Shown here piece after piece: positions 11,112-45,587 of a DNA stretch of 64,000 bases. Below the pieces are notes generated by a model. It was not told the DNA's origin, searched no databases, and saw only the letters and a list, made by a program, of their open reading frames with translations. The stretch lies in NCBI RefSeq assembly GCF_003334405.1, contig NZ_QOWM01000011.1. The stretch is one strand, 5' to 3'. This DNA comes from Escherichia coli. Its GTDB lineage: Bacteria; Pseudomonadota; Gammaproteobacteria; Enterobacterales; Enterobacteriaceae. Made by a program: the position numbers and the translations under genes. Within the stretch, counting starts at the first letter, position 1. Each line of letters opens with the position of its first letter.

Positions 11112-12095
11112 CTACAGTAAATCTTCAGTCTCACGAATTTCCTGACTGACATCTCTGGTTCCGGATGACTGAACTTTACGATACAGGTCGAGAGCCTGTC
11201 GGAGATCGACAGGTCTTCCTTCTCCGTAGTGATACATAATGGCCAGGTTATACCAGGCAGTGGCGTCATTGCATTCAGCGGCTTTCGTAAACCATTCAAA
11301 GGCAGCCTGATAATCTTTCTCAACGCCTTGTCCGTGTTTATACATATAACCGATGTTGACGTAAGCGCCGACGCTCCCCTGAGCGGCAGCCTTCAGATAC
11401 CAGTACATCGCTTGCTTATAGTCCTGGTCCACCCCTTCGCCAGCGTTATAATCCCATGCAATTTGAAACTGGGCGTGCCGATTACCCTGCTGTGCGCTTT
11501 TCAAATACCAGAATGCGGCGAGTGTCTTGTTTTGAGCAACGCCTTTTCCGTCTTCATAAAGATCGGCCAGATTGTTTTGCGCGTCACTATGGCCTTGTAA
11601 TGCAGCTTGTTTGTACCAGAAAAATGCCAGCGCATAGTCTTTTGCGACTCCGTTGCCATTTCTGTACATCCACCCAAGATTATTTTGCGCATAAGACATT
11701 CCGCTCTCCGCGGCTATCTGATACCAGACAACCGCTTCTTTATAATTGGGGGCTTCTCCACGATCCAGTGTCCAGCCAAGGGCGTTGGAAGCGAAAGTAT
11801 GGCCTTGTAGGGCAGCTTTTTTCAGCCAGAAGATGGCTTGCTCATTATCTTTATGACGGCTTTTATCCTCGGTATACTTTTGCCCTAAGGAATACTGTGC
11901 TTCACAATGACCTTGCTCAGCGGCCAGCTTCAGCCAGTAAAAGGCTTTTTCGTCGTCCGGAGAATCAATTGCGCTATCGCGATTATAATAAAACCCAACA
12001 ATATATTGAGCCTCGCAATCGCCTTTTTCAGCACGTTCGATAATCTCATCTATTGATAAATTATCGCAGCAACTTGACGTGAAAATCATTATCAT
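11112..12095 (-). CDS. ybeQ: Sel1-like repeat (SLR/TPR-like) protein YbeQ, no signal peptide
   Basis: ORF track 327 aa; repeated A..W...AA.QG...AQ..LG..Y..G.GV motifs; true start may be 2 codons downstream. Confidence 0.88.
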   Translation of the reverse strand: MIMIFTSSCCDNLSIDEIIERAEKGDCEAQYIVGFYYNRDSAIDSPDDEKAFYWLKLAAEQGHCEAQYSLGQKYTEDKSRHKDNEQAIFWLKKAALQGHTFASNALGWTLDRGEAPNYKEAVVWYQIAAESGMSYAQNNLGWMYRNGNGVAKDYALAFFWYKQAALQGHSDAQNNLADLYEDGKGVAQNKTLAAFWYLKSAQQGNRHAQFQIAWDYNAGEGVDQDYKQAMYWYLKAAAQGSVGAYVNIGYMYKHGQGVEKDYQAAFEWFTKAAECNDATAWYNLAIMYHYGEGRPVDLRQALDLYRKVQSSGTRDVSQEIRETEDLL

Positions 12096-12252
12096 TTCCT
12101 TATGGTTGCAGATAAAACATATTATATTTTTATGTGTTCCATTTTTGCGTAAGCCTTATTTTATGCGTATTATGTCGCGTCAGAAAAGTATAAATAAACG
12201 AGCCTCGCAATGCGGCTAATATTCATTTAATGAATATTTAAGGATAAATTAT

Positions 12253-19018: not shown

Positions 19019-19954
19019 TTAAGCGTAAAATTTCAGACGATCAGCCAGTAAATCAACAAAGCCCTGACGATCAACATCGACCATTACGGTGGCATTCGGT
19101 TTATTGCCTGTCAGATAATAATAATCAACAACCGTCATACCCTGGGTATATTTCCCCTGTGTTTCCACGCCAACCCAGCGCTCAACAGAGGTAAATAACT
19201 CCGGTTTCAACAGCCAGGCGATGGTGCATGGGTCATGCAGTGGTGCGCCGACAAAGCCCCATTTTTCGTCTTTATGATATTCGAGGAAGAAATCCAGCAG
19301 TTCGGCAACAATGGTTGAAACAGGGTTACCAATCGCGCGGAAACGCTCGGTGTCTTCAACGTGGATTTGTGCTTTATGAGTAACATCCAGACCGGCCATC
19401 ACCACCGGGATCCCTGACTGGAAGACAATTTCTGCCGCTTCCGGGTCAACGTAAATATTAAATTCAGCCGCAGGCGTCCAGTTACCCAGCCCCATAGCGC
19501 CACCCATAATCACGATACGGGCAATTTTGCTATGCAGTTCCGGATGGCTATTGAGCAGCAAGGCAACGTTAGTTTGCGGTCCGGTAGACACAATGGTGAC
19601 AGGTTCCGCACTTTCACGCAGCGTTTTCGCCATCAGCTCTACCGCCGTACAGTTTTGCGGTGCGAATGTCGGTTCCGGTAATGCCGGGCCGTCGAGACCG
19701 CTTTCGCCGTGCACATTGTCCGCGATAATCAACTCACGCATTAACGGTTTTACCGCGCCGCCTGCTACCGGAATATCGGTGCGATTAAGCAAGGTCAGCA
19801 TACGCAGAACATTGCGTAAGGTTTTTTCTGGTGTCTGGTTTCCGGCGGAAGACGTAATTGCTTTGACATCAAGCTCTGGTGAGGCGAGGGCGAGAACTAT
19901 TGCGATAGCGTCGTCATGACCTGGGTCGCAATCTAACAGAATTGGCAGTGCCAT
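19019..19954 (-). CDS. rihA: Pyrimidine-specific ribonucleoside hydrolase RihA
   Basis: ORF track 19019..19987 (322 aa); DCDPGHDD nucleoside hydrolase motif; start placed at internal Met ([15 protein letters not shown]) giving 311 aa. Confidence 0.9.
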
Positions 19955-27873: not shown

Positions 27874-29298
27874 TTACGGCTGATAATAACCCACGCCAAG
27901 GTCGTTTTCTTTGCGGGTACGGGCAATCACTGATTCCGGTGTTTCTGCCACGCGCAGACCCATTTCATCTTCAGTACGCACCACTTTACCGCGCAGAGAG
28001 TTCGGGTAGACGTCGGTAATTTCTACATCGACGAATTTACCGATCATATCCGGCGTGCCTTCGAAGTTGACCACGCGGTTATTTTCCGTACGCCCGGAAA
28101 GCTCCATGATGCTCTTACGCGATGTACCTTCTACCAGAATACGCTGGGTGGTGCCGAGCATCCGGCGGCTCCACGCCATCGCTTGCTGATTAATGCGCTC
28201 TTGCAGAATATACAGACGCTGCTTCTTCTCTTCTTCCGGAACATCATCAACCATATCGGCGGCTGGTGTACCCGGACGTGCAGAGAAGATAAAGCTGTAG
28301 CTCATGTCGAAATTGACGTCGGCAATCAGCTTCATCGTTTTCTCGAAGTCTTCGGTGGTTTCGCCAGGGAAGCCAACGATGAAATCAGAACTGATCTGAA
28401 TATCTGGACGCGCCGCACGCAGTTTACGGATGATCGCTTTGTACTCCAGCGCCGTATGGGTACGGCCCATCAGGTTCAGAATGCGATCGGAACCGCTCTG
28501 TACCGGCAGATGCAGGAAGCTCACCAGCTCCGGCGTGTCGCGATACACTTCGATGATATCGTCGGTGAATTCGATCGGATGGCTGGTGGTAAAGCGAATA
28601 CGATCGATCCCGTCGATCGCAGCAACCAGACGCAGCAGATCGGCAAACGATCCGGTGGTGCCGTCGTAGTTTTCACCACGCCAGGCGTTCACGTTCTGAC
28701 CGAGCAGGTTGACTTCACGCACGCCCTGAGCCGCAAGCTGGGCAATCTCAAACAGAATATCGTCGGACGGACGGCTTACCTCTTCACCACGGGTGTAAGG
28801 CACCACGCAGTAGGTGCAATATTTATTGCAGCCTTCCATGATGGAGACAAACGCGGTCGGCCCTTCGGCGCGCGGTTCCGGTAGACGGTCAAACTTCTCG
28901 ATTTCCGGGAAGCTGATATCTACAACCGGGCTGCGGTCGCCACGCACGGAGTTGATCATCTCCGGCAGACGGTGCAGCGTTTGCGGCCCAAAAATAATAT
29001 CGACATAGTGGGCGCGCTGGCGAATGTGCTCGCCTTCTTGCGATGCCACGCAGCCACCGACGCCGATAATCAGGTCTGGATTCTTCTCTTTTAACAGTTT
29101 CCAGCGACCCAACTGATGGAAGACTTTTTCCTGAGCCTTCTCGCGGATTGAGCAGGTGTTCAGCAGCAGCACATCCGCTTCTTCCGCCACGTCGGTCAGT
29201 TGATAGCCGTGGGTGGCATCCAGCAGATCGGCCATCTTCGATGAATCGTACTCGTTCATCTGACAGCCCCAGGTTTTAATATGGAGTTTTTTGGTCAT
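27874..29298 (-). CDS. miaB: tRNA-2-methylthio-N6-dimethylallyladenosine synthase (radical SAM)
   Basis: ORF track 474 aa; radical SAM CxxxCxxC (CNKYCTYC). Confidence 0.94.
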
Positions 29299-44321: not shown

Positions 44322-44768
44322 TTATTTGCCTTCGTGCGCATGTTCATCTTCGCGGCAATCGCCTTCGGCACAGTGACCGTAAAGATAGAGACTGTGGTTA
44401 GTCAGGCGAATGCCATGTTTTGCGGCAATTTCACGCTGACGCGCTTCGATGGAATCATCACTAAATTCGATAACCTTGCCGCAGTCGAGGCAGATCAGGT
44501 GATCGTGGTGATGTTGCTGTGTCAGTTCAAATACGGATTTACCGCCTTCAAAATTGTGGCGGGTGACGATACCAGCGTCGTCAAACTGGTTCAGTACGCG
44601 ATATACCGTAGCCAGACCAATTTCTTCACCCATATCGATCAGACGTTTGTATAAATCTTCCGCACTGACGTGATGGTTGTCCGGCTCCTGAAGAACTTCC
44701 AGGATTTTTAAACGAGGAAGCGTTACTTTCAGGCCAGCTTTCTTTAGGGCGGTATTGTTATCAGTCAT
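44322..44768 (-). CDS. fur: Ferric uptake regulator
   Basis: ORF track 148 aa, recognised Fur sequence (HHHDHLICLDCGKVIEF). Confidence 0.96.
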   Translation of the reverse strand: MTDNNTALKKAGLKVTLPRLKILEVLQEPDNHHVSAEDLYKRLIDMGEEIGLATVYRVLNQFDDAGIVTRHNFEGGKSVFELTQQHHHDHLICLDCGKVIEFSDDSIEARQREIAAKHGIRLTNHSLYLYGHCAEGDCREDEHAHEGK

Positions 44769-44847
44769 GCGGAATCTGTCCTGTTACTAAGCGGTTCACT
44801 TCATTAGAAGAAGTGACAGAATTTGCTCTTGAGATAATGCGTATCAT
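44761..44847 (-). CDS. uof: Upstream-of-fur leader peptide (28 aa)
   Basis: Last 28 codons of ORF 44761..44997 read MIRIISRANSVTSSNEVNRLVTGQIPHD; overlaps the fur start by 8 nt. Confidence 0.7.
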   Translation of the reverse strand: MIRIISRANSVTSSNEVNRLVTGQIPHD

Positions 44848-44851
44848 TATA
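44833..44851 (-). promoter_or_regulatory. Fur box-like palindrome in the fur/uof promoter (autoregulation)
   Basis: gataatgcgtatcattata resembles the Fur box consensus GATAATGATAATCATTATC. Confidence 0.5.
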
Positions 44852-45056
44852 GAATTGCCACGCCTAAATGAAAACCACAAGTCCCTGGCAAATATTGTTA
44901 ATAAAAACGTGGCACAGCTTACATTTACAACGGCAAGGCCACTTGAACACCGGGACATTGTACAGGTACAACAGCAAAAGTTACAAATTTGTAGCAATTA
45001 TTTTGATTGGCATTATCTATTAATACGGCGTAGACATGAGTCTACGCCGCATCACA

Positions 45057-45587
45057 TCAGGCATTGAGAATTTCGTCGAGATGCAACTCTTCAGAAATCT
45101 GTTTAACCCATTTTTCTACACGTTCAGCGGTCAGTTCCGGCTGACGGTCTTCGTCGATAGCCAGACCGACAAAGTGGTCGTCATCTGCCAGACCTTTTGA
45201 TGCTTCGAAATGATAGCCCGCAGTTGGCCAGTGACCAACGATGGTTGCACCGCGCGGTTCAATGATGTCGCGGATGGTGCCCAATGCGTCGCAGAAATAT
45301 TCGGCGTAATCTTCCTGGTCACCACAACCAAACAGCGCAACCAGTTTGCCGTTGAAATCAATCTCTTCGAGAGTCGGGAAGAAGTCATCCCAGTCACACT
45401 GCGCTTCGCCGTAATACCAGGTTGGGATGCCCAGCAGCAGAATGTCATAAGCTTCCAGATCTTCTTTGCTGCTTTTTGCAATGTCATGGACATCGGCAAC
45501 GTCTTTACCAAGCTGTTTTTGAATCATTTTTGCGATATTTTCGGTATTACCGGTGTCGCTGCCGAAAAAGATGCCAGTGATAGCCAT
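45057..45587 (-). CDS. fldA: Flavodoxin 1
   Basis: ORF track 45057..45704; start placed at internal Met ([16 protein letters not shown]) giving 176 aa. Confidence 0.93.

Follow-up and report, generated by a model that had tools for sequence, protein, structure and literature searches.

The stretch of Escherichia coli DNA analyzed here (64,000 nt, hereafter the window) carries the fldA-uof-fur region on its minus strand. The fur coding sequence (148 aa; 44322-44768, minus) is annotated in RefSeq and in K-12 and scores 309 bits against NCBIfam NF006999. Upstream of it lies fldA (45587-45057, minus), whose transcripts can read through into uof-fur. The 288-bp minus-strand spacer between the two genes contains the ATG of uof, a 28-codon leader ORF (44761-44847, minus; ATG 44847-44845, TGA 44763-44761) that RefSeq names "uof: fur leader peptide" and whose 28 sense codons encode MIRIISRANSVTSSNEVNRLVTGQIPHD. 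The ends given for uof in the initial annotation, which was made from the letters of the window alone, are exact. Its naming of uof, fur, and a Fur box agrees with RefSeq, with the K-12 annotation, and with the curated NCBIfam equivalog NF011344, "fur leader peptide," against which the uof peptide scores 85.2 bits (cutoff 71). Elsewhere, Enterobacter-type ORFs reach 55.6 bits with this model and more distant ORFs 31.6 and 20.2 bits, all below the cutoff.

The region is K-12-like, and nothing sets it apart from the K-12 uof-fur leader. We found a single difference from K-12 in 1601 nt, an identical uof peptide, and the gene order fldA-uof-fur-chiQ-chiP; in K-12 MG1655, uof is b4637, annotated as "RyhB-regulated fur leader peptide," and fur is b0683. 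An 801-nt query has a match in 5425 of 5426 complete E. coli genomes at an identity of at least 97.7%, and "uof: fur leader peptide" is annotated between fldA and fur in all records listed for these matches. The K-12 leader was reportedly described by Vecerek, Moll and Blasi in 2007. The locus is thus an already described and annotated E. coli uof-fur leader with its Fur operator, and the finding is not new.

As the initial annotation noted, uof and fur overlap by 8 nt (ATGACTGA, 44761-44768, minus; the fur ATG is at 44768). It took this overlap to imply translational coupling, and here the geometry gives less than was read from it. The uof TGA is built from fur codons 2-3 (ACT GAY), and the same is true in 78 of 81 loci, species without a uof ORF included. 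Because the TGA is made by conserved fur codons, the overlap is no independent sign of coupling; any open ORF in the uof frame must therefore stop there. Coupling of uof to fur, targeting by RyhB, and Fur autoregulation are stated in the secondary literature, and uof-lacZ and coupling experiments have been published, which we cite as they are relayed by the papers that refer to them.

The codon that supplies the T of the uof TGA, fur codon 2 (Thr, ACT; 44765-44763), is itself kept in 78 of 81 loci. ACT is also found in Pantoea, Erwinia, and Dickeya, all of which are without uof, so this synonymous site is constrained by something besides the uof stop. In Enterobacter asburiae, fur codon 2 is ACA and the leader ORF extends to 49 codons.

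The uof start was also said to lie inside a near-consensus Fur box, and a consensus mismatch scan bears this out. Read in the fur sense on the minus strand, the 19-mer at 44833-44851 (TATAATGATACGCATTATC) departs from the consensus GATAATGATAATCATTATC at three positions (16/19) and has the uof ATG as its positions 5-7; its plus-strand form, GATAATGCGTATCATTATA, has four mismatches to the same consensus. It is the best match in the 64-kb window and the sole site there with three or fewer mismatches. By analytic calculation 0.01 such sites are expected per window, and none appeared in 100 dinucleotide-preserving shuffles. The self-complementarity of the box is 12/19, and the surrounding block, TATAATGAnACGCATTA, is conserved in Enterobacteriaceae and some Erwiniaceae. 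A Fur ChIP-exo study of strain KO11 assigned an iron-replete peak to the uof,fur unit and classed it as "intragenic," that is, inside uof. One paper labels the site a Fur box and places it over the Pfura -10 and both fur starts inside uof.

Some further observations concern Fur-box-like sequences in the window. Two matches with four mismatches lie at 12081-12099 (5′ end of ybeQ, K-12 676539) and at 19114-19132 (in rihA, K-12 683572); with about 0.13 such sites expected per window, two are slightly above chance. A weaker site with five mismatches (44999-45017, minus, GATAATGCCAATCAAAATA) sits just 5′ of the upstream promoter described below and falls in a block conserved across genera, ATAGnTAAnnCCAATnAAAATAATTGCTACAAATTTGTAAC. 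We take this site to resemble the OxyR site reported for fur. As RNA, in the long transcript, the dyad of the Fur box (44834-44850) is predicted to fold as AUAAUG-AUACG-CAUUAU and so to pair the uof AUG, whose predicted unpaired probability is 0.09; the stem is weak and A-U rich.

A consensus scan of positions 44700-45120 found only two sigma-70-type promoters, both on the minus strand and each correctly placed 5′ of a mapped transcription start site (TSS). The proximal one, TTTTCA-17-TATAAT, matches the consensus at 10 of 12 positions. Its -35 element (TTTTCA, 44869-44874, minus) belongs to the conserved GTTTTCATTT block, and after the 17-nt spacer comes the -10 element (TATAAT, 44846-44851, minus), whose last two bases together with G44845 form the uof ATG. 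The upstream promoter, TTGTAA-18-TACAAT ("Puof"; 44957-44986, minus), matches at 9 of 12 positions and is invariant across 16 genera.

TSSs were taken from the genome-wide table of Kim et al. 2012 (PMC3415461, Table S1), with window positions obtained as the NC_000913.2 coordinate − 665101 and verified against the printed 51-mers. The most-used TSS in that dataset is 44838 (NC_000913.2 709939, minus), the A that ends TATAATGATACGCA, which leaves fur a 70-nt 5′ UTR and falls within uof codon 4, 9 nt beyond the first base of the uof ATG. Relative to this start the Fur box extends from -13 to +6, a placement classically associated with occlusion. Two starts assigned to uof lie upstream, one at 44950 (710051, minus), whose transcript carries the uof AUG, and a minor one at 44981 (710082, minus). 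The read counts, 46 for the proximal start against 8 and 5 for these two, come from a single dataset and its conditions and may under-represent the OxyR/SoxS-induced upstream promoters. Two papers place the Pfur starts within uof and Puof upstream, and read-through or co-transcription from ybfE-fldA into uof-fur is stated in the literature. A further 5′ end in the same table, at 44775 (709876, minus; 28 reads), lies 7 nt from the start codon of fur and has no promoter-like site in front of it. It may represent processing or a fur mRNA that is nearly leaderless.

Since TSS 44838 lies 3′ of the uof AUG, the proximal transcript cannot encode full-length uof. Only transcripts that start at 44950 or 44981, or that read through from fldA, contain the uof AUG. 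This bears on the proposal in the initial annotation that transcriptional autoregulation and leader translation converge on a few tens of nucleotides. As a statement about geometry the proposal stands, in that DNA bases are shared. It does not carry over to the RNA: the transcripts that the operator would occlude, those from TSS 44838, lack the uof AUG, and occlusion by Fur and translation of uof would therefore act on different transcripts.

To place these elements in an evolutionary context, we fetched the fur loci of 80 species, from Escherichia to Erwinia, Dickeya, Edwardsiella, and Hafnia. Four leader blocks are conserved or invariant across genera: the upstream promoter (AATTGCTACAAATTTGTAAC…CTGTACAAT), the proximal -35 region (GTTTTCATTT), the Fur box (TATAATGAnACGCATTA), and the fur ribosome binding site (RBS; AACAGGAC…CCGCATGACTGA). 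The ORF follows another pattern. One of 28-29 codons with the 8-nt overlap is found in Escherichia, most Citrobacter, Enterobacter, Kosakonia, Kluyvera, Phytobacter, Leclercia, and a few others. Salmonella arizonae and three others have 16 codons, with a stop 27 nt before fur, because of a 1-nt deletion in a hairpin loop. The ORF is 14 codons long in Klebsiella oxytoca and Raoultella, 13 in Atlantibacter, and 4 in Pantoea. Mangrovibacter and Cedecea have 23-26 codons and an ATGA overlap with fur, and the leader ORF of Buttiauxella and Dryocola is fused in frame to fur. The conservation expected of the small ORF was thus found in part: it is kept in about half of Enterobacteriaceae leaders and is truncated, frame-shifted, or fused in the remainder. 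The uof ORF is lineage-restricted, whereas the promoters, the operator, and the hairpin are broadly conserved.

In Buttiauxella, Dryocola, and one Enterobacter sp., use of the ATG in TATAATG would extend the Fur N-terminus by 22-23 residues, with no stop in between. An extension of this kind argues against this ATG as a start codon in these species.

Within the intact ORFs, the two halves behave differently. Among 23 distinct intact-frame 87-mers, no codon periodicity is seen over codons 2-15 (entropy 0.70, 0.52, and 0.61 at positions 1, 2, and 3), and the nucleotides of codons 16-26 hardly vary. The uof frame is stop-free in 23/23 of these sequences; the other frames contain stops in 23/23 and 13/23. 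In a wider set of 65 distinct leaders, the ATG frame runs open as far as the fur start in 43, and the control frames do so in 1 and 27; shared ancestry confounds these counts, and indels that break the frame turn up repeatedly (Salmonella arizonae, Klebsiella/Raoultella, Atlantibacter, and others). The open ATG frame reaches fur in three different registers, with spacing classes of 79, 82, and 85 nt that are multiples of 3 apart. The comparison fits the idea that translation, rather than the peptide, matters in evolution.

Folding and covariation point to a hairpin within the leader, UCACUUC-UUCUAAU-GAAGUGA, at 44796-44816 (minus), which corresponds to uof codons 11-17. Other genera have a hairpin at the same place built from other stems (ACUUCC/GGAAGU, GCUCC/GGAGC, CGCUCA/UGAGCG, GCCC/GGGC, and CUCCC/GGGGG). 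We built a covariance model from the leader and realigned 81 loci to it. In this alignment, which is thus fitted to the model, all eight of the eight hairpin pairs have changes on both sides; cells with two-sided changes number 41, compared to 10.7±2.9 in shuffles (0/500 reach 41) and at most 14 in any slid register, and 87% of hairpin cells are paired, compared to 34-51% in slid registers. A control based on contiguous pairs with G-U allowed was dropped as too permissive, as 83% of shuffles reached 5 bp. Rfam has no family over 44760-44960. The variable and the invariant columns of uof map onto the hairpin, and the hairpin is retained in species with a broken uof frame. Judged from these alignments, a hairpin in the fur leader is retained independently of the uof ORF.

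An in-frame GUG at 44797-44799, 31 nt before the fur ATG, falls in the 3′ arm of this hairpin and opens a 12-codon version of uof, VNRLVTGQIPHD. This version would be on the short transcript, and the GUG is without a Shine-Dalgarno sequence. Most Enterobacteriaceae loci have GTG at -31, some of them despite a disrupted 28-codon frame, and conservation of the hairpin stem may be all that keeps it in place.

The hairpin is not followed by a U-run, and a scan of 44700-45120 found no terminator-like sites; an attenuation-type arrangement of the trpL kind was not found in this interval. Folding gave no unusual overall stability of the leader (z = 0.26), and in neither the long nor the short transcript did it give a strong occlusion of the fur RBS that translation of uof could relieve. 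Shine-Dalgarno matches are weak for both genes (uof, -3.6 kcal/mol; fur, -4.0 kcal/mol).

For RyhB, the leader offers a short complementary motif. GAGCAA (44823-44828, minus) complements RyhB nt 42-47 (UUGCUC), which include G44 and C45, the two bases whose swap is reported in the literature to abolish regulation of uof and fur. The motif is 3′ of both the uof AUG and TSS 44838 and is therefore on both transcript classes. When K-12 RyhB was run against the leader with unrestricted RNAduplex, the output consisted of long artefactual duplexes, and 33% of shuffles were equally good. Seed-restricted duplexes were not distinctive either, with a best value of -13.8 kcal/mol against a shuffle mean of -17.1. 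One paper remarks that the RyhB-uof model is not predictable. RyhB is reported in the literature to lower the short fur mRNA and not the long uof-fur mRNA.

The other factor linked to this leader is MiaB, a tRNA methylthiolase that the literature connects with decoding of a UCA codon in uof. Codon 6 is TCA (UCA in the mRNA; 44830-44832, minus), one of five UNN sense codons in the ORF, and is said in the literature to need MiaB-modified tRNA-Ser. Enterobacter, Kosakonia, and Phytobacter have CCA or CCG at this position, and UCA is not conserved beyond Escherichia and Citrobacter. The miaB gene itself is in the window, at 27874-29298, about 16 kb from uof, and is identical to K-12.

Compared to known systems, the operator resembles classical Fur iron-box operators over -10/+1 of iron-repressed promoters, with its 16/19 match at -13 to +6 of a mapped TSS. 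It differs from them in that fur itself is the regulated gene and in that the operator holds a leader-ORF start that is transcribed only from upstream promoters. The leader is also akin to thrL and ivbL, the GcvB-targeted leader peptides, in that the downstream gene is reportedly controlled indirectly, through an sRNA that acts on a short ORF ahead of it. Unlike those leaders, uof is without an attenuator terminator (0 sites), and its reported link to fur is coupling via the overlapping stop and start. The fur loci of Yersinia enterocolitica, Klebsiella, Salmonella arizonae, and Pantoea have in common with E. coli both promoters, the Fur box, the leader hairpin, and the RBS block of fur, but in them the 28-codon ORF is absent or truncated; uof is stated in the literature to be absent in Y. 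enterocolitica.

Taken as a whole, the locus is in our estimate, with a probability of roughly 85%, the known fldA-uof-fur regulatory region with its elements layered on one another. Sequence and published mapping show that the 19-bp Fur operator covers both the -10 hexamer and position +1 of the proximal sigma-70 promoter, which Fe-Fur would repress by occlusion. On the longer mRNAs, following the literature, the 28 codons would be translated up to the UGA inside AUGACUGA, leading to initiation at the weak fur RBS. When iron is scarce, RyhB and MiaB-dependent decoding of UCA would lower translation of uof and hence of fur, again as the literature has it. Two further steps follow from the arrangement itself. 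On the long transcripts the Fur box comes about 100 nt after the start, where Fur could presumably act only as a roadblock. On the short transcript, which is without uof, RyhB would have to act through mRNA stability, in agreement with the literature report on the two mRNAs.

The alternative that survives best, although we consider it rather unlikely, is that the uof ATG is mainly a by-product of TATAATG. The ORF would then be a lineage-restricted overlay with a minor role, and Fur would be made mostly from the short transcript, controlled by Fur occlusion, RyhB-driven decay, and the conserved leader hairpin. The position of the major TSS, 44838, downstream of the uof AUG speaks for this reading, as does the reported effect of RyhB on the short and not the long mRNA. 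TATAATG is, moreover, invariant even where the ORF has 4 codons (Pantoea) or 13-16 codons or is fused to fur, and the lack of codon periodicity goes together with a pattern of variation that fits a conserved stem and a variable loop. Set against it are the published uof-lacZ and coupling experiments, as reported in citing papers, and the ATG frame that is open to fur "three times" as often as the controls (43/65 vs. 1/65 and 27/65). The 79/82/85-nt spacing classes, differing by multiples of 3, and the invariance across genera of the upstream promoters that would transcribe the AUG also tell against it. A related statement, that the deeply conserved units are the two promoters, the Fur operator, and the covarying stem-loop, and that uof is an overlay restricted to some lineages, found on a minority of transcripts, with an AUG that exists only since a G follows TATAAT, strikes us as possible but somewhat doubtful.

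We rejected a third reading, in which uof is a small protein with its own sequence-dependent function, as highly improbable. The C-terminal half, EVNRLATGQIPHD, is nearly invariant, and the variation in codons 16-26 favors the third codon position (entropy 0.27 vs. 0.08 and 0.08), as a functional peptide would predict. This half, however, coincides with two elements that keep their nucleotide sequence even in species with a broken frame, the hairpin 3′ arm and the invariant RBS block of fur; the N-terminal half is free to vary, and the ORF has been lost or shifted repeatedly.

A reading of the palindrome as AT-rich promoter sequence with no functional Fur operator could appeal to the 6 of 19 bases that are the -10 hexamer, to a self-complementarity of merely 12/19, and to fur autoregulation being described as limited. 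It is scarcely credible given the 16/19 match at 0.01 expected per window, the conservation of the non-hexamer part GAnACGCATTA as well, the iron-replete ChIP-exo peak assigned to uof,fur, and the literature label "Fur box."

Enterobacteria have Fur as their master regulator of iron, and the uof-fur pair serves as a textbook example of indirect sRNA control via a leader ORF. Annotations and publications already cover the ORF, the Fur box, and the link to RyhB, and the useful part of the present analysis is a clarification of the locus that begins with the layered arrangement favored above. The same few bases serve as operator, -10 hexamer, and leader start codon, and autorepression and uof-dependent translation therefore fall on different mRNAs. 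The uof ORF, in turn, is far less conserved than the promoter, the operator, and the leader hairpin. Should the ORF prove to be an overlay, coupling through uof would account for no more than a minor share of the Fur made in E. coli and other Enterobacteriaceae, and post-transcriptional control would come mainly from the hairpin and from decay of the short mRNA driven by RyhB.
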